DNA from: a virus
IMG/VR virus record: IMGVR_UViG_3300048929_000741
Location: 14,351-78,350 of that record
Direction: 5' to 3' (one strand)
Length of the DNA: 64,000 nt
Shown: piece after piece, positions 4,824 to 26,739 of the stretch
How the letters are laid out: every line of letters starts with the position of its first letter
Numbering within the stretch: position 1 is the stretch's first letter
Notes under the pieces: generated by a model
What the model was told of the DNA's origin: nothing
The model's database searches: none
The model's input: only the letters and a program-made list of their open reading frames with translations
Program-made: the position numbers and the translations under genes

Positions 4824-4929
4824 ACCCGAATTTGACGGATTACTGTACTTTGATAACTTAATATTGATAGTTGGTAGAAATTTCTGTATTATATAAGTTA
4901 GATACGGAATTTATATAGGAGAATGTGAA

Positions 4930-5709
4930 ATGAATGACATGATTGATTTTTTAAATGATGATAGAAATCCTAGTATGTATGGCATTTTGACTGGTATATG
5001 TAAAGGTGAGCATTGGTCTTTAAATGAAGATTTCCTGATCTTAGACGTAGCATACTCTTATTGTGTCGGTGGTTGTGGCGTGGTTGGTAGGATTCCATTT
5101 GAGAAAACGAAACAAGCAAGAGTATTTTTTGAAAGAATTTTTTCTTCACTTAAGGAAAAGAATATATGTGAATTTGAATTTTCATCAGAGGACAATGCGT
5201 TATGTGCAAAGATACTGGATATTTTTTCTGATAAAGAACTATATTCAGAGGAAGAATATTCATATCGGAAAGCAGATAAGTGCGTAGATAATGCTGTTAT
5301 GCCATCTTATACATTTTTAGAAGTAAATAGAAGTTTTATGAAAATGATAGATATATATATAAATGCTGATATGTTGCTTGAACGCTTGAATAACTCATGG
5401 TATTGCCAAGAAGATTTTTTTAGATATAGTAAGTGTTTTGTAGCAATACAAGGAAAGGAAATTGTTGGCATTATATTTGGTTCTGCAAGATTTTTAAATA
5501 TTATTGATGTTGATATTGAAGTGTTAAAAGAACATAGAGGAAAAGGGATTGCTACAACGCTGACTTCTTATTTTGTAGATGCTTGTATTAGTAATGGGTG
5601 GATAGTACAATGGGATTGCGTTGAATCCAATATTAAATCTAGAGCAGTCGCTGAAAAATGTGGATTTCAGTTGTTCAAAAAGAGACCATATTACTGGTTT
5701 ACTTTATAA
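4930..5709 (+). CDS. GNAT family acetyltransferase (moron)
   Basis: EHRGKGIAT acetyl-CoA motif, N..S..VAEKCGF; AT-rich with own promoter and terminator. Confidence 0.85.
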   Translation: MNDMIDFLNDDRNPSMYGILTGICKGEHWSLNEDFLILDVAYSYCVGGCGVVGRIPFEKTKQARVFFERIFSSLKEKNICEFEFSSEDNALCAKILDIFSDKELYSEEEYSYRKADKCVDNAVMPSYTFLEVNRSFMKMIDIYINADMLLERLNNSWYCQEDFFRYSKCFVAIQGKEIVGIIFGSARFLNIIDVDIEVLKEHRGKGIATTLTSYFVDACISNGWIVQWDCVESNIKSRAVAEKCGFQLFKKRPYYWFTL

Positions 5710-5859
5710 AATTAAATTTATATGTGTATTATTAAAAAATTACTAACTATCAGTATTAAGCTGGTAGTTTTTTTGTTGTAGTAAATCCAGAAAACTGAAA
5801 TTTAGCAGCCAACTGCTAAGCGTTGGAGAAAAGAGAAGATCGAGCCGGAGGTGATTTAA

Positions 5860-6801
5860 TTGGGGACAGGTAGAAGCTGGGCTCCTGCGGAAGAATCCTA
5901 CTTGGAGGAAAAATGGGGGACCATATCAATTAAGGGTATTGCAAAGAATTTAAACCGATCAGAGAATGCTATTGTTGTGCGGAGTCAGAGAATGGGTTTA
6001 GGAGCCTTTCTTGACGCTGGGGATTATATTACTTGGAACCAGCTCCAGATTGCACTTGGAATGGGCTTATCAGGTAGTGGATACAAAATGATTTCGTGGG
6101 TAAAGAACAGAGACTTTCCTATACATACTAAACTGATCAGAAGCAAATCGTTCAAAATAGTATTTTTAAATGAGTTCTGGGTGTGGGCGGAAAAGAATCA
6201 GACGTTTCTTGATTTCTCTCGATTCGAGCCTTTGACGTTGGGGGAAGAACCTGCGTGGGTACAAGGGAAACGCAGACATGATTGTGAAAACCGGAGACGG
6301 ATTAAAAATATACCATGGTCTACCTCAGAGGATAATAAATTAATCAGACTGGTTAAGAAGCAGCAATACGGAGTTCTGGAATTATCAAATCTGATGGGGC
6401 GCACTGAAGGAGCAATACAACGCCGACTAATAGATCTTAAGATTAAGGATCGCCCTGTAAAAGCGGATAATACAGTCAGATGGACAGACGGCGAATTCAA
6501 ATTACTTGGTGAGATGATTGTAGCAGGAAAGAAGTACGAGATGATGGCGGCAGTTCTTGGTAAGTCAACAAAAGCCATTCGCGGACGGGTATATCAGATG
6601 TATTTAACAGAGAATCTGGACAAGGCCAGGGCTATGATAGGACAAGGACCTTGGGGTGCTGGTCGCCCAGAACGCAGGATTAAGCATTACCTGCATATGG
6701 ATGAAAATGAGCGTAGGCAGACCAAAGAATTAATAGCAAGATTAGCGGTAGCTCTCCAAGCAGCACCTTTTAGCACAAAAAGAAGGGAGAATAAAATTTG
6801 A
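5860..6801 (+). CDS. Phage DNA-binding protein with repeated W(T/S)..E..L helical units
   Basis: Three Myb/HTH-like repeats (WAPAEE, WSTSED, WTDGE); GGAGG RBS. Confidence 0.6.
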   Translation: MGTGRSWAPAEESYLEEKWGTISIKGIAKNLNRSENAIVVRSQRMGLGAFLDAGDYITWNQLQIALGMGLSGSGYKMISWVKNRDFPIHTKLIRSKSFKIVFLNEFWVWAEKNQTFLDFSRFEPLTLGEEPAWVQGKRRHDCENRRRIKNIPWSTSEDNKLIRLVKKQQYGVLELSNLMGRTEGAIQRRLIDLKIKDRPVKADNTVRWTDGEFKLLGEMIVAGKKYEMMAAVLGKSTKAIRGRVYQMYLTENLDKARAMIGQGPWGAGRPERRIKHYLHMDENERRQTKELIARLAVALQAAPFSTKRRENKI

Positions 6802-6911
6802 AGAATTGGGTTAAATGGGTAAGCGTAGGTGTCGCAATCTCCGTAGGAATTTTTATTACGAAGAACCCTAATTGCTTATGGGCGTTTTTCATTCCGGTTT
6901 TCTGTGAATAA
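6798..6911 (+). CDS. Small membrane protein (37 aa)
   Basis: TTG start after GGGAG; MKNWVKWVSVGVAISVGIFITKNPNCLWAFFIPVFCE is hydrophobic; below the ORF-track cutoff. Confidence 0.5.
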   Translation: MKNWVKWVSVGVAISVGIFITKNPNCLWAFFIPVFCE

Positions 6912-6927
6912 CGAAGGTACATTGGCT

Positions 6928-7083
6928 ATGAAATATAACTTACATATGCTTTTACGAAAGATTGTAATGCGATGGACCGGGAAGAACTGCGGGACCTGTA
7001 AGCATTATGATGGGAGATTTGGTGATGATACTTGTTTCCTCTGTGAACAAAGCGTAAAGGCGGTGGAATATGAACAAAGGTAG
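6928..7083 (+). CDS. Small Cys-rich protein (51 aa)
   Basis: CGTC...CFLC; overlaps next gene. Confidence 0.45.
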   Translation: MKYNLHMLLRKIVMRWTGKNCGTCKHYDGRFGDDTCFLCEQSVKAVEYEQR

Positions 7084-7420
7084 AAAGTATACGATTTATG
7101 CCGTAGATTTTGATGGGACTTTATGCGAAAGTGTTTGGCCTGGAATTGGTAGCCCAAATACTGTACTGATTAATCATTTGATAAGAAGGCGGAGAGAGGG
7201 TAATAAAATAATCCTCTGGACATGTCGGTGTGAGAAGCGTCTGGAAGCGGCTGTTTCATGGTGCAGGTCTCATGGTCTGGAATTTGACGCTGTGAATGAG
7301 AATTTATCTGAAATGTTGGAGTTCTATGGAAATGATTCAAGGAAGATATTTGCTGATGTTTACATAGATGATAAGGCAAAGATTAAAGCACGGTATTGCA
7401 TTCCATTCAAGGCGGTATAA
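7070..7420 (+). CDS. HAD-superfamily hydrolase
   Basis: AVDFDGT, WTCR, DVYIDDK motifs. Confidence 0.85.
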   Translation: MNKGRKYTIYAVDFDGTLCESVWPGIGSPNTVLINHLIRRRREGNKIILWTCRCEKRLEAAVSWCRSHGLEFDAVNENLSEMLEFYGNDSRKIFADVYIDDKAKIKARYCIPFKAV

Positions 7421-7834
7421 ATGATGGAAGAAAATCTGCTTAGAAAATACTGGTCCACTTATACGGACGCTTGGAAACTTATGAAAAATCGTCACATGGT
7501 TGAACCGGAGCATGTGGCACAGATGATAAAAAAGCATGAGAATCCTGTCATGAACCGGGTGTTTTGTCTGGTTGTCTGGCAGGAAATAAAAAGAATTAAA
7601 TCCGGCGGCGTTCCTCTTCAGGACAAGCAGTACGAAGAATGTCTTACCGGAGCCTGGAAACTTTTCAAACAGTACATCTAACCAAATGATTCAGATGAAT
7701 ACTGGAATGGCCTTGTTGATATGATCAGGGCCATGTCCAAGCAATATGACAATTGTAGTTTTATAAGTAATCTCCTGATCCATGTAACACTGGAAGAACT
7801 TGAACGGATTTGGAGAGCGGGAAAACAAAAATAA
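7421..7834 (+). pseudogene. Phage hypothetical gene with internal TAA
   Basis: Frame stays open after TAA 7679-7681 (PNDSDEYWNGLVDM...GKQK) to TAA 7832-7834. Confidence 0.6.
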
Positions 7835-7886
7835 TGAAAGGAGCCGTTCCCCGGCCGGGAGAGTGTACACGGAACCTTTTTGAAAG

Positions 7887-9629
7887 ATGAGAGACTTAAT
7901 TATTGATTGCTTTGCCGGTGGAGGAGGGGCGAGTGTTGGAATTGAGATGGCATTAGGACGACATGTAGACATTGCAATTAACCACAATCCTCAGGCTATC
8001 CGGATGCATAAAACGAATCACCCAGACACACTGCATCTGACAGAGGATATCTTCAAGGTTGACCTGCAGAAGTATGTAAAAGGTCGCCACGTAGCTTTGA
8101 TGTGGGCCAGTCCTGATTGTACCAGCCATAGTAAAGCAAAGGGTGGAAAGCCACGAGAGAAAGGGCTAAGAATTCTTCCCTGGGCAGTATATAAACATGC
8201 GAAAACTATTTTGCCCGATGTTATTTTAATGGAGAATGTTGAAGAGATCCAGCAGTGGGGACCGTTGGATAAAGAGGGGTATCCCATAAAGGAACGCAAA
8301 GGAGAAGACTACCAGAAGTTTGTAAGAGCAATGAAATCGCTTGGTTATGTGTTTGATAGCCGGGAACTGGTAGCAGCTGATTATGGAGCTCCTACCACAA
8401 GAAAAAGATGGTATGCAATCTTCCGGAGAGATGGGAAACCGATTGTTTGGCCGGAACCAACTCATAATAAAAACGGAAATGATGGATTTAAAAAATGGGA
8501 ACCTATCTGGAAGTATCTGGATTTGACAGATTTAGGAAAATCTATCTTTGGTAGAAAAAAGCCACTGGCAGACAAGACAATGAACCGGATTGCCAGAGGA
8601 CTTGATAAGTTTTTATTTAACTGTCCAGAACCATTTATAGTCCAAGTCAACCATGGGGGCGATCACTTCCGAGGTCAGAATATTCATGAGCCTATGCCCA
8701 CCATAACACAGAAACATGGATTTGGAACTGTAACGCCTTATATTGTCCCAATAGGATACGGGGAACGGGAAGGGCAGCTCCCACGGATAAACAGTGCAGA
8801 AGATCCGGTTAGCACGATTGTTGCCAGTGGAAACAAGCATTATTTATGTTCTCCATATATCATGCAGCTGGGACAAACAGGATTTTGCGCAGATAGGAAT
8901 AGATCCCTTGAAGATCCAATGAGTACAGTGGTTACGAAGAATGAACATTGTTATATTAGTCCTCTTTTGATTCAGTATCATTCCCAAACTTCTAAGTCAG
9001 AGGTGAGAGGGCAATCGGTCGATGAACCGATAATGACGATTGACACCAGTAACCGCTATGGACTGGTGGCGGCTTTCCTCACGAAGTTTTATAAGACGGG
9101 AGTGGGACAGCCTTTATGGGAACCGATACACACAATCACAACCAGTCCGGGACATTTTGGACATGTAAGCATTCTTGCGATTAGCAAGGAAGAACTGCTA
9201 AAGAATGGTGTTGATGAAGAAACGGCGCAGAAATGTACTTGGGTGAGTCAGTTTATCATTAAGTACTATGGTGGTGATGTAACTGGAGTAAGCCTAGAAG
9301 AACCGTTACATACGATCGTGACAAAGGATAGATTCGCCCTGGTTACGGTTCTTGGAAACGAGTATGTGATTTTGGATATCTTTCTCCGAATGCTAAAAGC
9401 TGAACCGGAATTAAAACTGGGACAGGGATTTCCGGAAGATTACATCATAGATCATGATTATGAAGGAAAGAAATATGCAGCATCAGAACAAGTGGCCCGT
9501 ATTGGAAACAGTGTTGTTCCCATTGTGGCTGAAGCATTGGTTACGGCTAATTGCCCGCATCTAAAAATTGGAGAGCGAATGCCGAATTTGAAAATTGATG
9601 ACAGCCAGGCACAGCTTAGATTTGCTTAA
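7887..9629 (+). CDS. dcm: C5-cytosine DNA methyltransferase with repetitive variable region
   Basis: FAGGGG, SPDC, ENV, R.R, IGNSV motifs; repeated 'EP(M/L)xTI' units. Confidence 0.9.
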   Translation: MRDLIIDCFAGGGGASVGIEMALGRHVDIAINHNPQAIRMHKTNHPDTLHLTEDIFKVDLQKYVKGRHVALMWASPDCTSHSKAKGGKPREKGLRILPWAVYKHAKTILPDVILMENVEEIQQWGPLDKEGYPIKERKGEDYQKFVRAMKSLGYVFDSRELVAADYGAPTTRKRWYAIFRRDGKPIVWPEPTHNKNGNDGFKKWEPIWKYLDLTDLGKSIFGRKKPLADKTMNRIARGLDKFLFNCPEPFIVQVNHGGDHFRGQNIHEPMPTITQKHGFGTVTPYIVPIGYGEREGQLPRINSAEDPVSTIVASGNKHYLCSPYIMQLGQTGFCADRNRSLEDPMSTVVTKNEHCYISPLLIQYHSQTSKSEVRGQSVDEPIMTIDTSNRYGLVAAFLTKFYKTGVGQPLWEPIHTITTSPGHFGHVSILAISKEELLKNGVDEETAQKCTWVSQFIIKYYGGDVTGVSLEEPLHTIVTKDRFALVTVLGNEYVILDIFLRMLKAEPELKLGQGFPEDYIIDHDYEGKKYAASEQVARIGNSVVPIVAEALVTANCPHLKIGERMPNLKIDDSQAQLRFA

Positions 9630-9705
9630 TTTATTGTTCTTTGATAATTGAATATTGATAGTTGATGAAGTATAATAAATTTATTACAATTGATGGAGGG
9701 GTAGC

Positions 9706-10266
9706 ATGAAAGACGAGATGAAGAGAGTTATCGAAGAAGATATACAAAAGGCAACAGAAATATTAAGAGATAATAAAGAAGATGAATGTGAGACTTTTTA
9801 TCAAAGCCTTATATCGAAATATTCTCCATACATAAAAGGATTTGGAGATAACTTATTTTACATAAGTATGTATGATGATTTTTCTACTACAATGGATAAT
9901 ATTCAAATTTTGCGTGATAAATTAGTTTTATTTAAAGCTGGAGGTTTTATGGATTTTAGTGAAAGTCAAAAAAATTCATCACCCTTAATTACAATTACAA
10001 ATGAAAATAAAAATGAAAACGCAAATTCTGTAAACATTACTATTTCTTTTAACGAAGTTCGAAAAAGCATAGAAAATATGTCGGCACTTACAGATTTTGA
10101 AATAGAAGAAATTCTGTTAAAAATAAATAATCTTGAAGAAATTGTAAATTCTAAAGACAGAAAATCTAAAAAATGGGAAAATGCAAAAGGTATAATCAAT
10201 TGGATTGCAGATAAAGGTGTAGATGTTGGAATTGCATTATTACCGTTACTATTGCAAATAAAATAA
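9706..10266 (+). CDS. Hypothetical moron protein
   Basis: AT-rich; TTGAAT-17-TATAAT promoter 9648-9676; terminator 10272-10304. Confidence 0.7.
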   Translation: MKDEMKRVIEEDIQKATEILRDNKEDECETFYQSLISKYSPYIKGFGDNLFYISMYDDFSTTMDNIQILRDKLVLFKAGGFMDFSESQKNSSPLITITNENKNENANSVNITISFNEVRKSIENMSALTDFEIEEILLKINNLEEIVNSKDRKSKKWENAKGIINWIADKGVDVGIALLPLLLQIK

Positions 10267-10549
10267 TATTCAGCCAGCTATCAATATTTGATGGCTGGTT
10301 TTTTATTGCAAAAAATGAAAGGAGGCTGGATCTCCTGCGGGGCAAAGTCATGACGGTTCCTTTCAAAAGAAACCATTTATTAAATACACGAGAGAAACAG
10401 GGAGAGTTCCGTTCATTGGAACAACACAATACGAGGGATTTGTGAGAGCTCGCCTTTATTCACACACAGGCTGTAATGTGTATGATGGAAAGACGATTAA
10501 AAGCCAACCCATCATTATTATAGTCAAATATAATTTATTGGAGGATATA

Positions 10550-11008
10550 ATGGAGGAAATTAAACGACTGGTGAAACAATTTCGAGATGCAATAGATAAA
10601 GCGAGAGATGCAGGGGAATTTGATAAGGACTTTTCATTTTACAAATTTCCATGTGGGTGCTGCGGTGATGCCAGTGAGTTATTAGCTCAATTTTTATTGG
10701 AAAACGGTATTACAACATTTTATGTATGGGGTATGTATTCCAGTAGTCTGTCTGAAAGTCCTCAATCTCATGCGTGGCTATTGGATCATAATCATACTAT
10801 TATAGACATCACTGGTGATCAGTTTAGAGATAATCCTATTTATCTGAATTATTATAAATCAGTCTATGTTGGAGACGAAGATGATTTTCATAGATTATTT
10901 AGAGTTAATCCAAGAAATATTAAAAAAAATATTGGCATAGGTTCATTGGCGAGCCACTGCCAACCGAGGTTATATAATTTGTATGATAAGATCATTAAAC
11001 ATAGTTAG
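10550..11008 (+). CDS. Protein with Cys-His-Asp (transglutaminase/papain-like) motif arrangement
   Basis: CCGDAS...HAWL...IIDITGDQF; ATG 10550 after GGAGG. Confidence 0.55.
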   Translation: MEEIKRLVKQFRDAIDKARDAGEFDKDFSFYKFPCGCCGDASELLAQFLLENGITTFYVWGMYSSSLSESPQSHAWLLDHNHTIIDITGDQFRDNPIYLNYYKSVYVGDEDDFHRLFRVNPRNIKKNIGIGSLASHCQPRLYNLYDKIIKHS

Positions 11009-11063
11009 AATTATAAATTGATACAAGCCGGGGCATAGACCCCGGTAAAAAAATAGCATAAAA

Positions 11064-11077
11064 AGAACATACATTCG
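11064..11077. promoter_or_regulatory. Possible LexA (SOS) box upstream of tyrosine recombinase
   Basis: AGAACATACATTCG, one mismatch to the GAAC-N4-GTTC core. Confidence 0.4.
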
Positions 11078-11205
11078 ATTTAACGGAAATAAACAAGCGG
11101 CAGAGTCACCGACCAAAGATCTTCTACCGCTTCACGCTTAAGGATATTATAAAAGAAAATGTCTCCTTAAGCAACTGAAATTTAACGAAAAGGAGATTAC
11201 ATATT

Positions 11206-12243
11206 ATGAATGGACAAACCATAAAAGCACAGGTAATTAATAATATCATTGTTGCCATGGCGGAGCATGTGACTAAGGACGTTTTAGAAATTCTTCACCA
11301 GACGATAATAAAGGAATTTGTCAATGTCAATATGGAGGAAATAACCACTCTTCCAGTAGAGTACCAGAATGACACGGATCAGAAGAATAAGTATATCGTT
11401 CAACTTTTTATAGTGAAGAAGAAAATCAAAGATAATACTAAGCAAGCATACCTTAGTTCAGTTAAACGCCTGATTACCTTAATTGATAAACCACTGGACA
11501 GGATAGAGGAATCCGATATCAGCTATTACCTTTCATGGTATGAGAAGCGGAATATTAATGTCGGCGGCAAGAAGAATCAGGCCATTACCGTAAATAATGA
11601 AAGGCGTTTCCTATCAGCGTTCTTCACATGGATGCGAAAGGAGAAATTGATTGGAGAAAATCCGGTTGAAGCAACGGATCCGCTCAAAGCTATTAAAAAA
11701 CCAATTGATTATTTTAGGCCAGAGGAAATGACAAAAATGAAAGACGCCTGTAAGAGTTTCCGGGAACGTGCCTTAATAGAGGTGCTGCGCAGCACTGGTG
11801 CCAGAGTAGGGGAGTTGGTAGAGATAACCCTTGACCAGATAGACTGGAATACCGGGGATATCATGATCCTGGGTGAGAAGAGCGACAAATATCGTCCGAT
11901 ATTCTTAGATGATGATGCCAGGTATTATTACCGGAAGTATATGGAGTCCCGGAACGATGATAGCCCCTTTATGTTCCCTCAGTGTAAGGCACCACATGAT
12001 CAGATGACGACTTCCGGAATCAGGAGCATACTTAAAACTATTGGAAAGCGCGCCATGGTGAAAAGTAGGGTGTATCCCCATAAGATCCGTAAAACGCTCG
12101 GAATGACACTTAAAAACAAAGGTGTGGATATTGGAACAATACAGGAAATCATGGGACATGGAAGTCCTTCTGTGACTGCGGCATACTATGCTCAATCGAC
12201 TCCTGACACTTTGAGAAACATAAGAGAGAGGTGCATAGCCTAA
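11206..12243 (+). CDS. Tyrosine recombinase (XerD-like, with N-terminal core-binding domain)
   Basis: STGARVGE, HKIRKT, MGH, YY catalytic pattern. Confidence 0.9.
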   Translation: MNGQTIKAQVINNIIVAMAEHVTKDVLEILHQTIIKEFVNVNMEEITTLPVEYQNDTDQKNKYIVQLFIVKKKIKDNTKQAYLSSVKRLITLIDKPLDRIEESDISYYLSWYEKRNINVGGKKNQAITVNNERRFLSAFFTWMRKEKLIGENPVEATDPLKAIKKPIDYFRPEEMTKMKDACKSFRERALIEVLRSTGARVGELVEITLDQIDWNTGDIMILGEKSDKYRPIFLDDDARYYYRKYMESRNDDSPFMFPQCKAPHDQMTTSGIRSILKTIGKRAMVKSRVYPHKIRKTLGMTLKNKGVDIGTIQEIMGHGSPSVTAAYYAQSTPDTLRNIRERCIA

Positions 12244-12605
12244 TGGAAAATAAGACGAGAACTCAACTGAAAAACTTGGCTGCAATAAATGCTGCTATTG
12301 CTGAAGCTGATGAAGAAATTCAGATATTACAGAAAGAAGCGTCTACACATGGGTTTGAAGTAGAATATGTTTCTGCCTTGAATGAATTAAAACAAAAAAT
12401 TATATATTATCGCTATCAAAAAGTAAAGATATGTTTGGAAGTGTATGATCAGATAGAGACCCTGGAAAATGAGCAGGAAAAGCGATTATTGAAATATAGG
12501 TATATAAGGGGTTACCGCTGGGAGGTTATTGCAGAAAAAATGGGATATAGTATCAGACAGATTTTTAATATACATAAAGTTGCATTATATGGATTAAAAC
12601 CATAG
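12243..12605 (+). CDS. ArpU/RinA-like transcriptional activator
   Basis: LKYRYIRGYRWEVIAEKMGYS.RQIFNIH sigma-4-type HTH. Confidence 0.75.
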   Translation: MENKTRTQLKNLAAINAAIAEADEEIQILQKEASTHGFEVEYVSALNELKQKIIYYRYQKVKICLEVYDQIETLENEQEKRLLKYRYIRGYRWEVIAEKMGYSIRQIFNIHKVALYGLKP

Positions 12606-12702
12606 AGTTCTTAAAGAAAAGAAAGCCTCAGAAAAAAAAGACAACATTAATTCGTGGGGCTTTCTATTAATGCAATGTTCTATCTGATGCCTATATAGCT
12701 TT

Positions 12703-13785
12703 TTAAGTAGTATCTCTTAAACCAGTATATTCACCAATTTCATCCACCGTAGGGTGAAGAATAATATCTTGCAATTCTAATTTTTTTACAGATAATCCTT
12801 TAAAGAAAGATTGGTTTTTATATTTTAATAAAATTTCGTAATCATCATTACTTATATCTGTTTCCCCGTGCATGGAAGTGTTTCGGAATTGATACAAATC
12901 ATCTAAGGCCTCATGTAACTTAAATGGCAAATAATCGATATTGATGCCTCTTTTTCTCACGTAGTTTTTCATGTCGTACCATTTTAAATGCTTTGATTGT
13001 GTGTTTGGTAAATTAGACAATTGTATAATGGCATTAACCTCACGTTCAATTATAGCAAGATACTGCTTCATGAGTAAACTTGGCGCTATAGTGAATCGCT
13101 CATCTTTAATATAATATTCCTCTTCAATTACGTCAGCGGATACTAGATCTAATATTGAAGATTTTTCAAGACCAGGATACTGCGTAAGATACAGCATATA
13201 TAAATCGTTAATCTTATTTATTCCATGCCAATCTACAATTATGACTTTTGGTTTGTTTTTAGATGATAAAAGTGAGATTTCTGTTACTGTATCATAAATA
13301 TCTACGGTAATATCGATCTCAGAAACGAAATTGTTTATTCCTCTAGAAATTATACAATATGTAGTTATAATAAATGCATTCATAGCTGTATAACAGCAGG
13401 ATATAAAATCGTCTTTCATGAGATATTCATGATATATGTGTTGCATCAGTTCATGTAAAATAATACGTTCACTTGGTGACAAAGGCTCTTTATTTTCACA
13501 TTGGTTTAGCTTTAGGGGGTCTATGTATGTTAAAAAATTAATGTATTCATTATGCGATAAGCTTGTGCGTAACAATGTTTGAGTATGTATAATAATCAGC
13601 CTATCATTTTTATGTGGCCTTTTTAATAATCCAGCTAGTTGTTCCATTACGGATAATACGAAGTAACGTTCCCCATTAAAAGGATTAGATTTACCTATAA
13701 TTTTATCTGTATAGTCAATAAACATGTTATAAGTATTTTGTTCTATTTCGTGTGTACTTATTAAAGTATTTTTGGAATTATTCAT
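12703..13785 (-). CDS. Moron protein with C-terminal R-x4-H (HEPN-like) motif
   Basis: AT-rich, antisense to phage genes; FRNTSMH. Confidence 0.6.
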   Translation of the reverse strand: MNNSKNTLISTHEIEQNTYNMFIDYTDKIIGKSNPFNGERYFVLSVMEQLAGLLKRPHKNDRLIIIHTQTLLRTSLSHNEYINFLTYIDPLKLNQCENKEPLSPSERIILHELMQHIYHEYLMKDDFISCCYTAMNAFIITTYCIISRGINNFVSEIDITVDIYDTVTEISLLSSKNKPKVIIVDWHGINKINDLYMLYLTQYPGLEKSSILDLVSADVIEEEYYIKDERFTIAPSLLMKQYLAIIEREVNAIIQLSNLPNTQSKHLKWYDMKNYVRKRGINIDYLPFKLHEALDDLYQFRNTSMHGETDISNDDYEILLKYKNQSFFKGLSVKKLELQDIILHPTVDEIGEYTGLRDTT

Positions 13786-14070
13786 GTTTATATCCTTTCT
13801 TACTCAATTATTATTAATACAATAATTTAATATTAAGCACTAATTTTTATATTCACTTTTATTTTCTTAGTGATTTTCTTATCTTTAAAAACTCTAATAA
13901 GTAAAAAAGTTTTATATAAAGTATATGCTTTATAAATAAATAAGTAAAGAAAAATTATGTAATAATTGTACATAGAATTGCAGTAATAGATAGTGATATG
14001 CTTGTCTACGATATCAAATTAAAAGGAGATAAAGCTGTCCGGATGAAAGCTGCAGTTGCTTTTTTAAAGA

Positions 14071-18570: not shown

Positions 18571-18709
18571 AATTAAATATTAAAGCGTGTATATGCTAGC
18601 CTGGTTGGTCTTGACCATATACTACGTCCCCGTAATAGGCGGGAAAGAACCAATGACTTCCAGTCCTTGTGTTGTACGGTATTCACTCCGTATAGCGCAG
18701 GGACTTTTT
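18571..18709 (+). ncRNA. Putative ~140-nt small RNA
   Basis: TTGACA(18536)-17-TAGAGT with extended TG; strong terminator 18662-18709; no ORF with RBS seen. Confidence 0.45.
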
Positions 18710-18875
18710 ATTTGCCCGTAAATCGATTTGACATTGACAGGTGAGAAAATGTCCACGAAAGACATTTAAAACGGCGCACGGGGCAAAATTAAGCGTTAAA
18801 ATGGGTTTTAAATCTATTAGTCATAGCACAGATAGAACAGAAACAGATAGAATCTAAAATCAAGGAGTTGATAAC

Positions 18876-19046
18876 ATGCAGGGAATAAGTGATAAGTGTG
18901 GCCGGGAAAGCTGCAGGTTTCAGGACACTGGGAAATGTACGAATACGGAGCAGCGGGATGAATGTCTGAAACTGCTGAATCAAATCATTCCTGATCCAGA
19001 AGACCGGATAACTTTGGCATTATCAGATCAGGTAGTTAAAGATTAA
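18876..19046 (+). CDS. Small Cys-containing phage protein (56 aa)
   Basis: AAGGAG RBS; C-x4-C-x6-C...C. Confidence 0.5.
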   Translation: MQGISDKCGRESCRFQDTGKCTNTEQRDECLKLLNQIIPDPEDRITLALSDQVVKD

Positions 19047-19143
19047 TAAATCTGTGGTATTTACCCAGATAAATAATATATAAAGCTTTTATATGTATCT
19101 GTATGATACCTGTATAAGACACAGAAAGGAGATATAAAACATT

Positions 19144-19776
19144 ATGTCAGATAATATTAATTACACTACTGTAGCTGATACTGATGGGAATACAGTAGAT
19201 GTCTTTGAAAATGAGATATCTCTATATCTCCAAGAATACATAGATGAACGTGGTATATCTGATATGCGTAAAGAACCACAGAGTCGTTGGAACGCTGCTC
19301 TTATATATATAAATAAAGCTTTATTTGGTGTTAATAAAGATAAATTAATTATAGATAGCAGAGTAAGTAATGCTTATAATATAGACCTTATTAGTAGTAT
19401 ATGTGATGTTTATATAACTCTCTGTTATGAATATGACAAGGAGATTAGTATTATAGGTTTCTCTAAGTTAACAGGTATTAATCAAGATACTTTCTATTCT
19501 TGGGGCAATAATGAGACGCAAGTCGGTTCTGGTGCCTCCGAGATATACAAAAAACTTAATTCCGAAAGAGAAGAAAGTTTGAGCAACAAATTGATTTCTG
19601 GCGGTTCCAATCCCATGAAAATACTCCCGGCACTCAACCGACATTACGGGTGGAACATGGGACAGCCAAGAGGAGCGGACGGCGCGGCGCGCATATCAGT
19701 GAGTCGTGAGGAGATAGAAGCTAGGGCTCACACAGTGGATCTGCTGCCGGAATCGGCTGACGAATTACCTGATTAA
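19144..19776 (+). CDS. Putative terminase small subunit / DNA packaging protein
   Basis: HTH-like 'SIIGFSKLTGINQDTFYSW' then 'LNRHYGW'; no other TerS candidate seen. Confidence 0.5.
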   Translation: MSDNINYTTVADTDGNTVDVFENEISLYLQEYIDERGISDMRKEPQSRWNAALIYINKALFGVNKDKLIIDSRVSNAYNIDLISSICDVYITLCYEYDKEISIIGFSKLTGINQDTFYSWGNNETQVGSGASEIYKKLNSEREESLSNKLISGGSNPMKILPALNRHYGWNMGQPRGADGAARISVSREEIEARAHTVDLLPESADELPD

Positions 19777-19814
19777 GGGCATAAGAAAAGCCCCGGCGAT
19801 TGCCAGGGCAGTGA

Positions 19815-20393
19815 TTAAATCAAGAATAGATTTTTTTGAATAGCTTCTTCAATTTGCTTCGGTTGAATGCCAATGTATCGCTGAGTAACAGCAGCACTTG
19901 AGTGTTGCAGGAGTTGCCGAACAAGCTCAATATTGTATCCATTGTCATTGTAAAGGTTGGTCGCGTAGAATTTGCGGAAGCTGTGGGAACCAATATTATC
20001 AAGGCTTAGAGCCTCGCAGACCAGTTTTAAATGCTTTTGAATGGCTCTTTCGCTGATATCAAACAGTTTCGCACGACTGGATATGTTATTATCAAGCGCA
20101 TATTGCAAGATGTAATTATACAGCTCGACCGGCACAGTAAAGTTTCTTTCCTTTTTGGTTTTCCCCTCTGTGATATTAAGGCGATACCGTTCGCCATCTT
20201 TGATAATGTCACATGCGTGGAGCTGCAGCACATCACCAATACGTAAGCCCAGGTTGGCTTCCAGTACTAAGGCAGTAGCGATCCGGTTGTTCGGCTTACA
20301 GGCGGTACCGTCCTTGGCTATGAACCCAGATCGGATAGTGTCAATGATAAGCTGATATGATTCGCGGGTTAGTGTCACGGTTTTTTTATTCAT
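19815..20393 (-). CDS. Catalytic-domain-only tyrosine recombinase (resolvase-like)
   Basis: LGLRIGD, HSFRK, LQH, TQRY; ATG 20393 after AAGGAGG. Confidence 0.88.
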   Translation of the reverse strand: MNKKTVTLTRESYQLIIDTIRSGFIAKDGTACKPNNRIATALVLEANLGLRIGDVLQLHACDIIKDGERYRLNITEGKTKKERNFTVPVELYNYILQYALDNNISSRAKLFDISERAIQKHLKLVCEALSLDNIGSHSFRKFYATNLYNDNGYNIELVRQLLQHSSAAVTQRYIGIQPKQIEEAIQKNLFLI

Positions 20394-20409
20394 TCTATAC
20401 TCCTCCTTG

Positions 20410-20521
20410 AAAGTTCGTAAAATACTTCTGAAAAGTTCGTATAATCTATTAACACCATCATACCACACGATAAAACCATTGTAAATACGTAATAGTTCGT
20501 TTGCTAACCATTTTACGAACT
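20410..20521. repeat. AGTTCGT direct and inverted repeats upstream of the small recombinase
   Basis: AAAGTTCGTA at 20410 and 20432, AGTTCGT at 20494, inverted ATTTTACGAACT 20510-20521. Confidence 0.6.
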
Positions 20522-20667
20522 CAGAAACACCAATAGAAAAAGTACCCGGGACGGGGTCTATAGGAAAGCTGTTTTCGGCCTTGTTATGTACGGAAAGTCC
20601 GAAAAATTCAAAAAGGGCTTTTCGTCAAAGATAAGAATTTGATCAAGAAAGTAAAGGGGTAAATATC

Positions 20668-21126
20668 GTGATAGACCTTACAGGAAAGTTTATAACCACT
20701 ACGACAAATGAAGAAAGTGAAAGATTGCTTAGAATGGCATCTGCACGAGGATATAGAACAGATATTGGATTGAAAGTGTTGGTCAACAAAAGACTTTTCC
20801 ATTTTTCTGAGTTTCCTAAATGGATAACTACACCGGCTTATTTTCATATACCGGATAATGCTTATACATACCAGGAATTATTCGGAGAAGAAGATGAGGA
20901 AATGAGCAGAATATTATCTGATTCATTACGATTCTGCCGGGCGCATGGATATAGCCTTTTCAGGATTTACGTAGATGATGAGACCATGTCATTCAAGGGG
21001 AAAGCGATAGCCAAAGGAGATTCAGGAGATCGTAAAGAGATTGAAAAGAGTATTGGTAAGCCAATTAAACTTTCAAAGGCTGACATTGAACTGCTTGTAG
21101 GATGTCCTGTGGAGATCGTTTCTTAG
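20668..21126 (+). CDS. Hypothetical phage protein
   Basis: ORF with RBS; C-terminal 'IELLVGCPVEIV'. Confidence 0.6.
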   Translation: MIDLTGKFITTTTNEESERLLRMASARGYRTDIGLKVLVNKRLFHFSEFPKWITTPAYFHIPDNAYTYQELFGEEDEEMSRILSDSLRFCRAHGYSLFRIYVDDETMSFKGKAIAKGDSGDRKEIEKSIGKPIKLSKADIELLVGCPVEIVS

Positions 21127-21187
21127 AAAAGTAATTCTCAAAAATTTTAAAATTTATAAAAAGGCCTTTCCTCAGGAGGATACATTA

Positions 21188-21634
21188 ATGTTTAATCGAA
21201 AACTATTGTTTGCCAAAAGGCATAGAGGAACTTTCCTGTTTGCATTTGTGAACTTCAAAACTCAGGAATGTTATGAATGGTATATTCAGTTCTCTTTAAA
21301 GAACCCCTGGTGGATCCCTAAATATGATCCATATTACCTGAATGGGAAGTGGCCGTTAGCCGGTTGGTTGTTTTTCTATTTTGGCAGACATACCAGAGGA
21401 GCAATCATTCCATGTATGGAACGCGAGATTCCCGAAGGCAAGAAGCCCATTATTGATAAAACTGGTAAGAAGTATATGATTTACAATCTTCCTGATGAAG
21501 AACTGGCCAGAAATTTCCGGAGGACGATTCTCCGGTATAACTGCAATGTAGAGATTGAAAAAGATGGGGATACGGTGACAGTTGTGAATCGTGTTCAGTC
21601 CAGAAGATGGATTTCAAATTTTCTTAAAAAATAA
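21188..21634 (+). CDS. Hypothetical phage protein
   Basis: GGAGG RBS. Confidence 0.6.
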   Translation: MFNRKLLFAKRHRGTFLFAFVNFKTQECYEWYIQFSLKNPWWIPKYDPYYLNGKWPLAGWLFFYFGRHTRGAIIPCMEREIPEGKKPIIDKTGKKYMIYNLPDEELARNFRRTILRYNCNVEIEKDGDTVTVVNRVQSRRWISNFLKK

Positions 21635-21650
21635 AAAAGGGTTGTATGCT

Positions 21651-21836
21651 ATGAAGAAAAAACTGTACATGGCAGTAGAGACCGATGAATATGAGCTGCC
21701 GCTTTATGTGGCAGATACTTCAAGAGAACTGGCTGACTGGTCTGGATTAAGTATTGGATATATATTGAGTGCTATATCACACGGCTATTCCGGAAAGAAA
21801 GCTGGAATGAAGTTTCTGAGAATTGAAGTTGAATAG
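21651..21836 (+). CDS. Small phage DNA-binding-like protein
   Basis: YMAVETDEYELPLYVADT..ELA pattern common in Firmicute phages. Confidence 0.6.
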   Translation: MKKKLYMAVETDEYELPLYVADTSRELADWSGLSIGYILSAISHGYSGKKAGMKFLRIEVE

Positions 21837-21875
21837 GAGAAATTAATTATAACTAAACCAATAGGCAAGCGCCCA

Positions 21876-22856
21876 TTAGTTTAGCCGAATATTACATTTA
21901 GTCGTATAATCATTTATTTCAAGATATGCATAAAAAGAAGAACCCGCTTTATTTATTTGATATCTTTGGTATGCACTACCTGTAACCTTATTTAAGTCAA
22001 CAATGTTTAATGATAATAATAACGGGCAAATATTTTTCCTTACAAAATCGATTTCTGGTAATGATTTATTATTGGCCGTTTTAATACTAATTAACCCCGT
22101 ACATAACTTTCCAAAAAAAGCAATAAATATATCTAAAAAAGACGCATTAATATTTCCATCTGTAGTGGGTAGATCATAATATTTACTATTCATTAAATTG
22201 ATGAGTTCTGGATAAGGTATTCCGTTTATTGATTGAGTAGTATTCTTGTTTATTTTTAGTTTTTCGTTTTCTTTAACTAATTTCAGGTTTTCTGCAGCTA
22301 ACGTAGTGTTATTTTTTAAGAGTTTAGTTAATTCTTGATTACCAGTATCTTTAATCCAACCGGATAATTTGTATGTGCTTTGAAATTCACTTAGAGTTGT
22401 GAGAACAGCAATTTTAATATCCTTACAATCTTCTACTGGACGAATTACTTTACTCATGACATATTTTTTAAATGATTGATACTTCCCAGGCTCAATTTGC
22501 TCTATTGTGTTAGATAAGCCTAAAATTGCAGCTTTTTCTGTCAGCCAACTTTCTTTTATTAGAACTGCAAATACAGGGATTTTCTTCTTGATAGCATAGC
22601 GGTATTCGAGTTCAGTATAACTTAAACCAGAATTTATTTCTATGGAACCATATCGTCCACCAAGAATTAACATATATACATCTGATTCATCAATCCATTT
22701 ATATATTGTATTTAATTGTGACTGATTGCCAGCTTTGAATAATTCCATGCCTGCAGGAATATGACCAGCATCAAGGATCGCTTGTACGGCAGCCTGTCTT
22801 TCTTCTATCAGATCAGTATATGTTGAAGATACAAAAACCTGTAATTTTTTATCCAT
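21876..22856 (-). CDS. DUF4062-domain protein (moron, defence candidate)
   Basis: QVFVSSTYTDL.EER, GMELF, GGRYGS, SYTELEY. Confidence 0.85.
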   Translation of the reverse strand: MDKKLQVFVSSTYTDLIEERQAAVQAILDAGHIPAGMELFKAGNQSQLNTIYKWIDESDVYMLILGGRYGSIEINSGLSYTELEYRYAIKKKIPVFAVLIKESWLTEKAAILGLSNTIEQIEPGKYQSFKKYVMSKVIRPVEDCKDIKIAVLTTLSEFQSTYKLSGWIKDTGNQELTKLLKNNTTLAAENLKLVKENEKLKINKNTTQSINGIPYPELINLMNSKYYDLPTTDGNINASFLDIFIAFFGKLCTGLISIKTANNKSLPEIDFVRKNICPLLLSLNIVDLNKVTGSAYQRYQINKAGSSFYAYLEINDYTTKCNIRLN

Positions 22857-22970
22857 TTAATGCTACCCCCCTCTTTGTAAACTATAACAATTATACTTCA
22901 TTATTAGGGATAAAGCAATTTTAAAAGAAGTATTTAGTCTATAAAAAATAAAATAATAGGAGGGTTATTT

Positions 22971-23222
22971 ATGTTTGATAAGACCATTAATAATTTTAGA
23001 GCCGGGAGGCTCCGAGAAGCTGCAACTATTATCAGTAATGAGTTTATGCAGAAAGGTGACTGGTACAATGCTTTAGTAGCCTCTATCCATGGATATTTAC
23101 AGGAAACCGATGGCTCAATTCCTTATGATCAGATGGCGCTGGAATTAGCAAACAGGATAGTTGGTATAGAACCAGATCCTGTAGAAGATACAGAATGCGG
23201 TTCTGAAGACTATGAATTTTGA
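22971..23222 (+). CDS. Hypothetical phage protein
   Basis: GGAGG RBS. Confidence 0.6.
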   Translation: MFDKTINNFRAGRLREAATIISNEFMQKGDWYNALVASIHGYLQETDGSIPYDQMALELANRIVGIEPDPVEDTECGSEDYEF

Positions 23223-23234
23223 AAGGGGATATCC

Positions 23235-23627
23235 ATGGATAAAAAAGAATTAGCCCATATAATTAATGGTCGGGAATATGGCTATGAGATCTTCAGAGAC
23301 GTGCGTCGCGCTGCCATAGATGCCGGTCTGGTTATCGTAAGCGGTGCTTCTGATGACTTGATTGAGTTTGATGGAGCTATTTATGATGAAGGCGGTTGCT
23401 TTGATGGTAGAAAAGTATATTTTGACCGGAATGGCGTTTCGCAAGATGGTTCAGAACGGGCAAACTGTATTGAAGCCTTCTGGTGCGATAAAGCCGCATT
23501 AGATGAAAATGGTAATGTGATTCCATGGACATATAAAACGGATATCCCTCATGAAACATTTATGATTTATGAAGACGGGGAGCCGTATTGTAAGGGTATC
23601 GTGTTTGATTTGTTAGATGTGAAGTAG
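23235..23627 (+). CDS. Conserved phage protein
   Basis: GASDDLIEF.G ... WTYKTDIPHETF.IYEDGE.YC.GIVF pattern. Confidence 0.7.
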   Translation: MDKKELAHIINGREYGYEIFRDVRRAAIDAGLVIVSGASDDLIEFDGAIYDEGGCFDGRKVYFDRNGVSQDGSERANCIEAFWCDKAALDENGNVIPWTYKTDIPHETFMIYEDGEPYCKGIVFDLLDVK

Positions 23628-23638
23628 GAGGTAAGATT

Positions 23639-23803
23639 TTGGAAGTTTTGAAGTGGATTGTAACAGTTTGGAATGTATTTATGGCGGTATTTATCTGTTG
23701 GTTTTCCAGAGGAATGACTTGGAAAAGAGAAAAAGCAGCTATGATCGGATTTGGATTGATGGCAATTATGTATGTTCTGGCCTTGGCGCCAATTTGGAGA
23801 TAA
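23639..23803 (+). CDS. Small two-TM membrane protein
   Basis: TTG after GGAGG; hydrophobic 54 aa. Confidence 0.5.
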   Translation: MEVLKWIVTVWNVFMAVFICWFSRGMTWKREKAAMIGFGLMAIMYVLALAPIWR

Positions 23804-23806
23804 CTG

Positions 23807-24544
23807 ATGGACAAAACAAAGATTGATTGGTGTGATAGCAGCTGGAATCCGGTAACGGGTTGTCTACATAATTGCGAATATTGTTACGCAAGGAGTATTG
23901 CTAATCGTTTTGGCTTTCATACTAGCGAACCAGATATAAGTGAAAGAATCTTAGAAGAGGTTCCGATAAGTAGAGGTAAGAAAGTCCCATACCTATTTGA
24001 TTTTCAGCCGACTTTACACAAATATCGCCTTGATGAGTACCTGTATAAAAAAGGCAGAAATATTTTTGTCTGTTCCATGGCTGATCTATTTGGCGAATGG
24101 GTTCCGGATTCTTGGATTAATGAGGTTATGAGTGGATGTCAAAATGCTCCTCAGCACAATTATCTATTTCTTACAAAGAATCCAGTTCGATATGCTAAAT
24201 TGGCGGCTAAAGAACTTCTTCCAAAGAAGAATAATATGTGGTATGGATTTTCATGCACAAGGCCTGGATATACAGGGTGGTTTAACAAGCGGTTCAATAC
24301 ATTCGCAAGCATTGAGCCGATATTAGAACCGTTAGAAATTCCGGTAGTTGATTGGGTGATTGTTGGAGCGGAGACGGGTAGGCGAAAAGATAAAGTCATT
24401 CCAAAGCGTGAATGGATTGAAGATATTGTTAGTCAGTGTGCAAAATCTGACATTCCTGTATTCATGAAGTCCAGTCTATCAGAAATATGGGGACAGCCTT
24501 TAATTCAGGAATTTCCAGAGCAGTTAAGGAGGCCGGGAATATGA
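23807..24544 (+). CDS. Phage Gp37/Gp68 (DUF5131) family protein
   Basis: TKIDW.D.SWNPVTGC...C.YCYA, SMADLF, LTKNP, DWVIVGAE. Confidence 0.85.
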   Translation: MDKTKIDWCDSSWNPVTGCLHNCEYCYARSIANRFGFHTSEPDISERILEEVPISRGKKVPYLFDFQPTLHKYRLDEYLYKKGRNIFVCSMADLFGEWVPDSWINEVMSGCQNAPQHNYLFLTKNPVRYAKLAAKELLPKKNNMWYGFSCTRPGYTGWFNKRFNTFASIEPILEPLEIPVVDWVIVGAETGRRKDKVIPKREWIEDIVSQCAKSDIPVFMKSSLSEIWGQPLIQEFPEQLRRPGI

Positions 24545-24846
24545 TTTGCTTCACAGAACAGCAGAAACAGGAAATAGTACATACAGGAATACTGGTAATC
24601 GAATTTAAGAGGTCAATATTGAGGGCCTGTGAAGTACTGAAAGACATGTTTATGTTTGTCAAAGATGTATTTCTTCAAATTGCAGACAAAATCTCCAAAT
24701 GCGTGCAGGTGATTCGGAAAGAATATCGAGATGTGCCGCCAAAGAAAAAATATAAGGTTATCAGCAAGCTGGACAAGTGCGGATTTACAGAAAAGGAAAT
24801 AAACTTGATGGTAGGCGGTGTATACCACTGCCGGAATAATTGTTAG
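24541..24846 (+). CDS. Hypothetical phage protein
   Basis: ATGA overlap with upstream gene. Confidence 0.55.
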   Translation: MICFTEQQKQEIVHTGILVIEFKRSILRACEVLKDMFMFVKDVFLQIADKISKCVQVIRKEYRDVPPKKKYKVISKLDKCGFTEKEINLMVGGVYHCRNNC

Positions 24847-24939
24847 AGAGGATGTAAGATAAATTGATTTTTACATATTTGGGAATTGTCCTGTTCTTCA
24901 CGTTCGAATGGGTTAAATTCATAAAATTAGATTCACTGA

Positions 24940-25620
24940 CTTTATCCGAACGGCTTAGCGGTGCCTGGATAATAGACAGTTCGAGGCACCCAGTTTAGAT
25001 GGTGTCTGTATCGAAGAAAAGTGCTGAATATAATGATTATACCGCTTAAAGCAGTTAGTAATTGTTACAGACGATGGCAACGCAGTAATGACGGTAAGTT
25101 GCTGAGAAGTCCGTTAGAGTGAAATATCCTCATGGCTGAATGCTAATTAAGGGCCGTCACTGGCCCGTGGGAATTTGCCCGGAAACGGGCATTGGCGTAT
25201 TTACCTTTCGCCTCATAGCTGTTTGCTGTTAAGGCGGAGTGAATCCCCCGTGAGGTTTTTATCCTTATCTCCACTTAGTGGGATTTCCTGCATGAAGTCC
25301 TGTCGATGGGTGATGTATGGGATAGCAGGTATTAGTTTTATGATGGTTAAAACAGGCTGAAGCGTATGTAAAGACATGCAGGTTCAGGTTCACATACATA
25401 CGTCAGGAAGCAAGACGTGCGGTTCGATTCCGCATATACCTGTTGGAAATAATCTGGCTTAGTCAGTCAGAAAATTTCAAGTAAGAGGTTGCAAACTCTT
25501 GCGTGATTGCGGTGGTGGTTCAAATCCACAATCCTGTTATATGAGTATGTGTGAGGCTAACATTGAAAGTTTGGCAGGTAAGGCGTAGGATAATCGCAGG
25601 TTCGACTCCTGCCACTGTAA
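24940..25620 (+). ncRNA. Large structured noncoding RNA locus with tRNA-like modules
   Basis: Pseudoknot 24942-24990, GAAA-tetraloop hairpin 25176-25191, three T-arm hairpins (25418, 25515, 25596), tRNA-like fold 25326-25442. Confidence 0.55.
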
Positions 25621-25695
25621 TTTGCACATTGGAAATTGAATATTGATGGTTGGTGAGTTATAATGTACTCAAACACAAATGATGAGGGGGTTCTT

Positions 25696-26694
25696 ATGGA
25701 TAAGCGATATCAGGTATTTATAAGTTCTACATTTACCGATTTGAAAGAAGAAAGAAAGGCTATTATTGAAGGACTTTTAAATGCGAAGTATATACCTTCA
25801 GGGATGGAAATGTTCTCAGCTTCTAATGATGAGCAATTTAAGTACATAAAGAAAATTATTGATACTTGTGATTATTATGTTCTTATTGTGGGGGCAAGAT
25901 ATGGTTCGATTAATTCCACCACAGGTAAAAGTTTTACTGAACAGGAATATGATTATGCTATTAAAAAGGGGATTCCAGTGTTAGCTTTTCTACATGATGA
26001 TCCTTATAATCTTCCAGCTGAAAAACGAGAAGATGAAAAAAAAGAACTATTAGAAAAATTTAGAAATAAGGTTTTAAATGCTGATCGGTTATGCAAGATG
26101 TGGCATTCGTCATCTGAGCTTACATCATTGGTTATAATAAGCCTTGTTGAAGAAGTAGCAGAAAATCCGCAGATGGGTTGGATAAGAGGTGATATTGCTG
26201 ATACAACTGAATTGCTGTCTCAAATAAATATGTTAAGGAATAAAAATGATGATTTAAAAAAAGAATATGATAACTTGAAAAAAGAATATGAGTTCTTAAT
26301 AACTCCTGTAAATGATAATATTGCATCAGGAGATGATGTATTTGAAGTTATTGGAGAAAAAGAAGCTTATTTGTATGATGATGATTCGTGGCTCGAGGAA
26401 ACAAGAAAAGAATTTACTTGGAAGGAAATTTTTTCTGCAGTAGGTCCATATTTGTTTGTACAACGAATATATGATGATTTCACATATTACTTGAGAGAAT
26501 CATTAAATTCTGCGTATGATTTTAATTTTATAAAATTGAATGATAATTGCGTTCAAGTCATAAAAATTCAATTATGCGTTTTAGGTCTTATTGAGATAAA
26601 TAATATGAAATTTAATGGAGCAGATGTAGAGGGAATTGTTATTACAGAAAGAGGTAAGACGTATTTATTAGAAATAAAAACAGTTAAGAAGTGA
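25696..26694 (+). CDS. DUF4062-domain protein (moron, defence candidate)
   Basis: QVFISSTFTDL.EER, GMEMF, GARYGS, SFTEQEY; promoter TTGAAT-17-TATAAT 25636-25664. Confidence 0.85.
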   Translation: MDKRYQVFISSTFTDLKEERKAIIEGLLNAKYIPSGMEMFSASNDEQFKYIKKIIDTCDYYVLIVGARYGSINSTTGKSFTEQEYDYAIKKGIPVLAFLHDDPYNLPAEKREDEKKELLEKFRNKVLNADRLCKMWHSSSELTSLVIISLVEEVAENPQMGWIRGDIADTTELLSQINMLRNKNDDLKKEYDNLKKEYEFLITPVNDNIASGDDVFEVIGEKEAYLYDDDSWLEETRKEFTWKEIFSAVGPYLFVQRIYDDFTYYLRESLNSAYDFNFIKLNDNCVQVIKIQLCVLGLIEINNMKFNGADVEGIVITERGKTYLLEIKTVKK

Positions 26695-26739
26695 CTTACA
26701 CTACCAACCATCAATATTCGGTGGTTGGTTTTTTGGCGA

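Follow-up and report, generated by a model that had tools for sequence, protein, structure and literature searches.

A conserved promoter-terminator chassis carries exchangeable single-gene morons in Lachnospiraceae phages and may act as a long-range antiterminator

The window analysed here, a stretch of 64,000 nucleotides (nt), corresponds to bases 14351-78350 of a 78-kb IMG/VR provirus record (IMGVR_UViG_3300048929_000741) and contains three unrelated genes, coding for a GNAT acetyltransferase, a protein of 186 amino acids (aa) and a DUF4062 protein, which are shown to be single-gene morons in one conserved chassis of Lachnospiraceae temperate phages. The order of this chassis is a promoter, a short leader with a ribosome-binding site, a slot for an open reading frame (ORF) and an intrinsic terminator. 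A promoter box of about 16-19 nt, consisting of the -35 hexamer and spacer (P box), is complementary to the 5' arm and loop of the terminator (T box), and this complementarity is maintained, not merely inherited. It can be proposed, with a probability of roughly 45%, that the chassis works as a promoter-embedded long-range cis antiterminator, which would let phage read-through pass while the cassette's own transcripts stop; this proposal rests on sequence comparison and predicted RNA folding.

Phage morons are promoter-gene-terminator units of lambdoid prophages, namely single accessory genes of deviant composition located between phage genes. Each cargo of the window is likewise a single gene between a predicted sigma-A-type promoter and a predicted intrinsic terminator (Table 1), all three cassettes are low-GC islands (0.27-0.34 versus about 0.41 around them), and replacement in related phages is observed (relatives L364 and L398). 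The three inverted matches pointed out in an initial annotation were all confirmed. In cassette 1, the P box agrees with the reverse complement of the T box at 18 of 20 positions, both mismatches being G:U-compatible in RNA; the inverted match amounts to 13 of 14 positions in cassette 2, where the mismatch would be U:G in RNA, and to 17 of 17 in cassette 3. The shared CTTTGATAA ahead of the first two sites was found as described, as were the position of the upstream copy over the -35 hexamer and spacer of a sigma-A-type promoter and that of the downstream copy in the terminator 5' arm and loop. The recurrence of the motif AATATTGATRGTTG in the window is not due to chance: with at most 2 mismatches, 10 matches are found versus 2.36 expected, a number reached in none of 100 shuffles, and the best matches are the six cassette sites, three forward and three reverse.

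The distribution of the chassis was followed with a 15-mer against viral contigs, a promoter-specific 18-mer against bacterial genomes and a terminator-specific 18-mer against viral contigs. The viral and bacterial contig scans gave 146 distinct cassettes with a box spacing of 243-1400 nt, nearly all of them from (pro)phages of Lachnospiraceae; their cargos fall into about 76 unrelated families of at least 90 aa. Genuine matches in bacterial genomes come from Lacrimispora, Enterocloster, Mediterraneibacter, Blautia, Hungatella, Lachnoclostridium, Dorea and Tyzzerella, almost all Lachnospiraceae, while chance matches in other phyla have no complementary partner. Candidate carriers of such cassettes among cultured strains are Lachnoclostridium phytofermentans KNHs2131, Lacrimispora xylanisolvens DSM 3808, Lacrimispora amygdalina DSM 12857 and Enterocloster citroniae DSM 19261. 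When the promoter was located by its upstream half alone (TTGNNAAYTKAATA) and the terminator was taken as the first downstream hairpin with a T-run, the P box differed from the complement of the terminator 5' arm and loop by no more than 2 mismatches in 15 in 156 of 179 cassettes. Anchored on the terminator, the scan found a promoter box at most 3.5 kb upstream of 104 of 115 terminators, the others having either too little upstream DNA (8) or no promoter box (3). In unrelated contexts, TTGAYAAYT is conserved upstream of the P box, and the 3' arm and T-run are conserved downstream of the T box. The leader can also carry a feature of its own: in a gut-phage subgroup (L052, L055, L070, L267, L286 and L289; columns 44-72 of alignment A1, described below), a small hairpin CCGTA...TACGG is located just ahead of the ribosome-binding site, before unrelated cargo ORFs.

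Regarding exchange of the cargo, the most direct case is found at cassette 2. The relative L364, about 80% identical to the window, has the same methylase gene, chassis and downstream sequence, and its slot holds an unrelated 182-aa ORF, not the 186-aa cargo; homology with the window ends about 6 nt ahead of the start codon and returns at the first base of the 5' arm. At the place of cassette 1, L398 has a different cassette. Ten cargo families are found with two or three box haplotypes, P box and terminator being matched every time. At the level of sequence, this shows that recombination within the conserved flanks moves cargo ORFs from one chassis to another. The standard expression chassis with exchangeable cargo that the initial annotation had suggested is strongly supported by the L364 swap together with the number of cassettes and cargo families. 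In root metagenomes that contain the phage, assembled contigs stop or fork at both boxes. In three root metagenomes (runs X1-X3), contigs matching the GNAT cassette (window 4753-5760) at about 95% identity have about 10 times the depth of the rest of the phage (e.g., 174 versus 15), and several different sequences adjoin the P box of this cassette in these runs; the GNAT cassette is evidently also present in other, more abundant genomes of the same root communities.

Many of the cargos look like single-gene anti-phage defence genes. The domains recognised are typical of phage-bacterium conflict (Mrr, DUF2971, AbiJ, SIR2, KAP NTPase, RES, NYN, metallophosphatase and GNAT), and several cargos match candidate single-gene systems of PADLOC, namely PDC-S20, S25, S31, S32 and mREase_IV, the KAP NTPase corresponding to PDC-S20 and the AbiJ-like protein to PDC-S32. 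Many cargos start with a membrane helix, and most families have no annotation at all. A PADLOC search of the three cargo proteins of the window gave no match.

Covariation between the two copies, for which the initial annotation had asked readers to look, is present. The family contains three Watson-Crick haplotypes, GATGG/CCATC, GATAG/CTATC and GGTAG/CTACC, and in the last of these the terminator 3' arm remains GGTGG. A fourth covarying position is found in the subfamily of window cassette 1 (GTTAG/CTAAC), and the 5' extension also covaries, with CTT:AAG in this subfamily versus TTG:CGG or TTG:CAA elsewhere. At covarying position 7, 109 A:U, 22 G:C, 7 G:U and no A:C pairs were counted; the corresponding numbers are 62, 77, 1 and 0 at position 9, and 5, 129, 3 and 1 at position 13. 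When promoters and terminators are re-paired at random, the Watson-Crick pair count falls by 12 standard deviations. Pair counts and shuffles were also made on an alignment of 28 short cassettes (A1), where 95.5% of the cells of the helix between P box and 5' arm are paired and 21 are double changes (shuffled mean 7.3; none of 500 shuffles reaches the observed value). For the terminator hairpin, the figures are 96.4% paired cells and 5 double changes (shuffled mean 1.6; reached in 9 of 500 shuffles). Slid controls for the long-range helix are far lower.

Where the pairing of the P box is Watson-Crick, the terminator hairpin takes up the same changes through G:U; what the P box tracks is therefore the 5' arm, as its complement, whereas a direct repeat would track the 3' arm. 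The hairpin register varies by subfamily (three stem registers and a form with an 18-nt loop), and the complement of the box is kept throughout. Two or three variants of the box can coexist in one genome, each fitting its own partner: where a genome has several cassettes, the P box pairs better with its own terminator in 12 comparisons, equally well in 4 and worse in 2.

A role of the box as RNA in transcripts that arrive from upstream, which the initial annotation had not considered among its three possibilities, fits these observations best. The P box is located about 20 nt upstream of the predicted cassette transcription start, its end lying about 5 nt before the -10 hexamer, so that only transcripts arriving from upstream carry it. 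RNA initiated at the cassette, as expected in the lysogen, would lack the box; its terminator would fold, transcription would stop, and the downstream phage genes would be insulated. RNA from further upstream, i.e., from phage early or late operons, would contain the P box, which could pair with the emerging 5' arm and loop, block the hairpin and let the polymerase read through. The terminator would thereby sense where the transcript began, and the choice of promoter would be the switch.

Computed energies and the arrangement of neighbouring genes are consistent with this antitermination. The duplex between P box and 5' arm has a mean predicted energy of -22.9 kcal/mol versus -13.7 for the hairpin, and it is the more stable of the two in all 138 cassettes compared. 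In minimum-energy folds, the P box:5'-arm helix replaces the terminator of the read-through RNA in 59 of 63 cassettes, while the terminator of the cassette-initiated RNA is kept in 62 of 63. Among the 75 cassettes with both neighbours callable, 53 are co-directional with both neighbouring ORFs, and the next gene starts at a median of 34 nt past the terminator, too close to have its own promoter, so that phage transcripts must run across the cassette terminators.

Several points weigh against an antiterminator. The pairing has to span 250-1400 nt over a translated ORF and to beat the local hairpin kinetically, and the folds describe equilibrium only; for window cassette 2, the predicted fold keeps the terminator. 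Accessibility of the box in nascent RNA is not raised (unpaired probability of 0.42 versus 0.44 overall), and a convergent next ORF does not go along with weaker complementarity. No RNA runs containing window 4000-11500 were found. Relatedness among the sequences is a further caveat, as is the small number of compensatory events strictly needed (2-4). Mismatches of the G:U type outnumber those of the A:C type 38:15 in a hand tally from the per-position table, an excess that is absent on the promoter side alone and that is weak as proof of RNA pairing, because it is confounded by the hairpin's own constraint. Finally, the 3.2 Mb of fetched loci yielded no unrelated second family of this architecture, and all 124 terminators there with an upstream complement of at least 12 nt belong to the P box family.

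Among the other explanations, the one that survives best, although we consider it unlikely, is that the boxes are recombination handles only, i.e., portable homology arms for cargo swapping, comparable to the PeSLs of T4-type phages (see below), whose complementarity is a functionless relic of shared ancestry preserved by co-inheritance or gene conversion. The swaps within conserved flanks, with the homology breaks at ORF start and 5' arm in L364, the ten cargo families in chassis of differing haplotype, the metagenome contigs that break or branch at both boxes, and the fact that the entire design is a single sequence family would all be expected from such handles. However, descent alone does not give three or four Watson-Crick-matched haplotypes with a 3' arm that differs, and gene conversion would work poorly on an inverted repeat of 16 nt. 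Crossing-over between the boxes would invert the cargo, and inversion is never seen; swaps between haplotypes should often create mismatches, whereas the mismatches at covarying positions are almost all G:U. Homologous exchange is certainly part of the story, yet it is insufficient alone to account for a covarying inverted relation.

It is improbable, considering the fate of the downstream message, that the box and terminator form a stalk of 19-20 bp that loops out the cargo ORF, as in rRNA stalks, and is cut by RNase III, thereby removing the cargo or separating the upstream from the downstream message. Covariation fits a stalk equally well, and the helix, about 19 bp long (-4 to +14, with two U:G pairs), is near the size of RNase III substrates; its complementarity, which runs through the loop into the first bases of the 3' arm, exceeds what is needed for blocking the 5' arm. 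After cleavage, however, the downstream phage message would start with a 5' monophosphate and be exposed to decay. Such a stalk is compatible with antitermination and not exclusive of it.

A DNA operator, one of the roles envisaged in the initial annotation, appears slightly more improbable again. In this case, a phage or host protein would bind the 16-bp box both at the promoter, for repression, and at the terminator, as a roadblock or for looping. A box over the -35 hexamer and spacer is in a classic operator position, and its core is highly conserved, but a single binding protein has no need of the cassette-specific, compensatory variants that are matched within one genome. Furthermore, neither box alone is a palindrome or a half-site repeat, and no regulator gene travels with the cassettes. 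For the suggested action of the 3' RNA end on its own promoter there is no plausible target, since the promoter spacer stays unmelted and is absent from the cassette's own RNA.

A mobility or capture signal, i.e., the ends of a mobile or invertible element in the form of transposon-like terminal inverted repeats, an invertase site pair or an integron-like core-site/attC pair, is highly improbable: the cargo does lie between inverted repeats in an integron-cassette-like topology (right half - cargo - left half.right half), with one scar-like site and a tyrosine recombinase gene about 0.9 kb downstream of cassette 2, but the sequences conserved outside both copies mean that the repeats are not terminal, 2.9 million viral contigs yielded no scar, the slot holds a forward-strand ORF in the 33 cassettes checked (only the forward strand being scanned), target-site duplications were not noticed, though no search was aimed at them, and most cassettes have no recombinase nearby.

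With regard to the empty sites that the initial annotation proposed to tabulate, IMG/VR yielded neither a P box-to-T-tail scar nor an empty site. The sole scar-like site is in a metagenome-assembled genome (MAG) (locus L177, minus strand, about 6394-6440), where a P box is fused to a terminator T-tail, TTGAATATTGATGGTTGG/TTTTTTATTGCG (the slash marking the junction), in the form expected from a deletion between the P box and the terminator loop and 3' arm. No precise empty junction was found via the flanking genes of cassettes 1 and 2. Among the relatives of the gene after cassette 1, L398 has another cassette and L399 diverges over a wider block, and for the gene after cassette 2 only 38 residues could be matched, the window copy being 5'-truncated.

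Table 1. Parts of the three cassettes, in window coordinates; promoters and terminators are predictions.
Feature	Position	Strand	Details
Cassette 1, promoter region	4848..4892	+	CTTTGATAA 4848-4856; P box 4857-4876
Cassette 1, promoter match	4864-4892	+	TTGATA-17-TATTAT; -35 4864-4869; -10 4887-4892
Cargo 1, GNAT acetyltransferase, 259 aa	4930..5709	+	PF12746, E 9e-20
Cassette 1, terminator-like	5741..5776	+	T box 5741-5760; hairpin AACTATCAG/CTGGTAGTT 5745-5769, then T-run
Cassette 2, promoter region	9639..9676	+	CTTTGATAA 9639-9647; P box 9651-9664
Cassette 2, promoter match	9648-9676	+	TTGAAT-17-TATAAT; -35 9648-9653; -10 9671-9676
Cargo 2, 186-aa protein	9706..10266	+	without Pfam or PADLOC family
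Cassette 2, terminator-like	10272..10306	+	T box 10275-10288; hairpin 10272-10300, then T-run
Cassette 3, promoter	25636-25664	+	TTGAAT-17-TATAAT; -35 25636-25641; P box 25638-25654; -10 25659-25664
Cargo 3, DUF4062 protein, 332 aa from likely start	25696..26694	+	PF13271, E 1e-29
Cassette 3, terminator-like	26703..26735	+	T box 26703-26719; hairpin ACCAACCATC/GGTGGTTGGT 26703-26729, then T-run

The cassettes of the window have phage genes as neighbours, namely a primase/helicase, two DNA methyltransferases, a D5-like regulator and a tyrosine recombinase, and the large terminase gene (27609-29372) is found just past cassette 3. A megablast of window 4000-12000 against deposited phage genomes gave no match. 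The DUF4062 gene most likely starts at 25696, to judge from the GAGGGGG ribosome-binding site ahead of this position; an alternative ATG at 25663 overlaps the -10 hexamer.

After cassette 2, the gene at window 10365-11008 is a 5'-truncated copy from which about 540 nt of the 5' part are gone. Its counterpart in L364 (L364:2383-3111) is a 242-aa ORF, and other relatives are coding across the same region (...TQDEGF...). Since the window lacks this 5' part, the 188-aa ORF with a GTG start that follows cassette 2 is probably a remnant. The tyrosine recombinase (integrase family, phrog_1; window 11206-12243) is located inside the replication/methylase block; it is also present in L364 and has no general linkage to the cassettes.

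Just upstream of cassette 3 (window 25400-25620), two tRNA-like 3' ends can be found, GGTTCAAATCCAC... and GGTTCGACTCCTGCCAC..., which may be degenerate phage tRNAs or attachment-site remnants; ARAGORN and Rfam called nothing on the window, these ends included. Between cassette 3 and the large terminase lies a second low-GC moron facing backward (26893-27362, minus strand; 136 aa, phrog_9607), with its own predicted TG-extended -10 promoter (27362-27335). The sole other complementary match in the 78-kb provirus, at 47757 (12 nt), was rejected as a pair of similar terminators, not a promoter/terminator pair. Similar G+C-rich hairpins (AATCCCGG...) at window 46740-46790 and 47755-47790 flank a minus-strand gene (46823-47533) and look like related terminators, one of them bidirectional.

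A moron has to be expressed and terminated alone in the lysogen, inside operons that are transcribed through during lytic growth, and lambdoid phages solve this problem with protein antiterminators. The chassis could, tentatively, be a protein-free, cis-encoded means to plug lysogen-expressed genes, often for defence, anywhere in an operon, with a terminator that reads the origin of the transcript. If true, an RNA antiterminator inside a promoter would add a new, portable answer to this problem and a new type of long-range control over transcription, and it would be of use as a synthetic "insulated insert" part. Whatever the mechanism, the conserved chassis provides a search handle, the box-pair scan yielding more than 70 prophage cargo families from gut and soil Lachnospiraceae.

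Full-text literature searches found no published description of a cassette design with a promoter complementary to its terminator, and the chassis can be compared with several systems that share part of it. In a transposon, the repeats would be the outermost conserved sequence, which is not the case here. Integron gene cassettes combine a core site (GTTRRRY) with an attC of 57-141 nt. As in integrons, an exchangeable unit the size of a promoterless ORF is followed by an imperfect palindrome, a half-site copy of which is found upstream. However, the palindrome is here a terminator of 25-30 nt and not an attC, and the upstream copy is the complement of the 5' arm, the 3' arm being different (GGTGG versus GGTAG in the P box); moreover, no IntI-type integrase is linked to the cassettes, and scars are absent from IMG/VR, with one in a MAG (L177).

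With regard to classical morons, reportedly known from the work of Juhala, Hendrix and co-workers on HK97/HK022, the cargo often consists of host-benefit or defence genes, and protein antiterminators (N, Q) are credited with carrying phage transcripts across them. The genes of the window resemble them in their deviant composition, in having their own predicted promoter and terminator and in being presumably expressed from the prophage. To our knowledge, classical morons share no common promoter or terminator sequence, whereas a single conserved chassis here serves about 76 or more cargo families and has a promoter complementary to its own terminator.

In T4-type phages, conserved promoter and terminator motifs termed PeSLs (promoter-early stem-loops) flank orphan genes in variable regions, where modules are shuffled by exchange at these motifs (Arbiol et al., 2010, PMC2839356; Comeau et al., 2014, PMC4122927). 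Promoter and stem-loop overlap or lie next to each other in a PeSL, forming a single compact composite motif that, as a direct repeat, can yield mini-circles (PMC2839356, PMC4122927). Conserved promoter and terminator flanks around variable ORFs likewise mark exchange points in the present family. Unlike in PeSLs, promoter and terminator are here at opposite ends of the gene and their relation is inverted and covarying; the promoter carries one strand's worth of the terminator, so no local hairpin can form. Direct junctions of a P box with a terminator tail number 0 in viral contigs, circular forms not having been sought. The hosts are Gram-positive Lachnospiraceae and the phages temperate.

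In attenuators and riboswitch expression platforms, a sequence complementary to the terminator 5' arm competes with the 3' arm. The P box is such a competitor, being complementary to the 5' arm and, by computation, forming the more stable alternative helix. The antiterminators known to us share a leader with the terminator, no more than about 100 nt away from it, and respond to a ligand, a tRNA, a protein or the ribosome. In contrast, the competitor is here 250-1400 nt away, beyond an ORF and embedded in a promoter, and the switch would be the choice of promoter.

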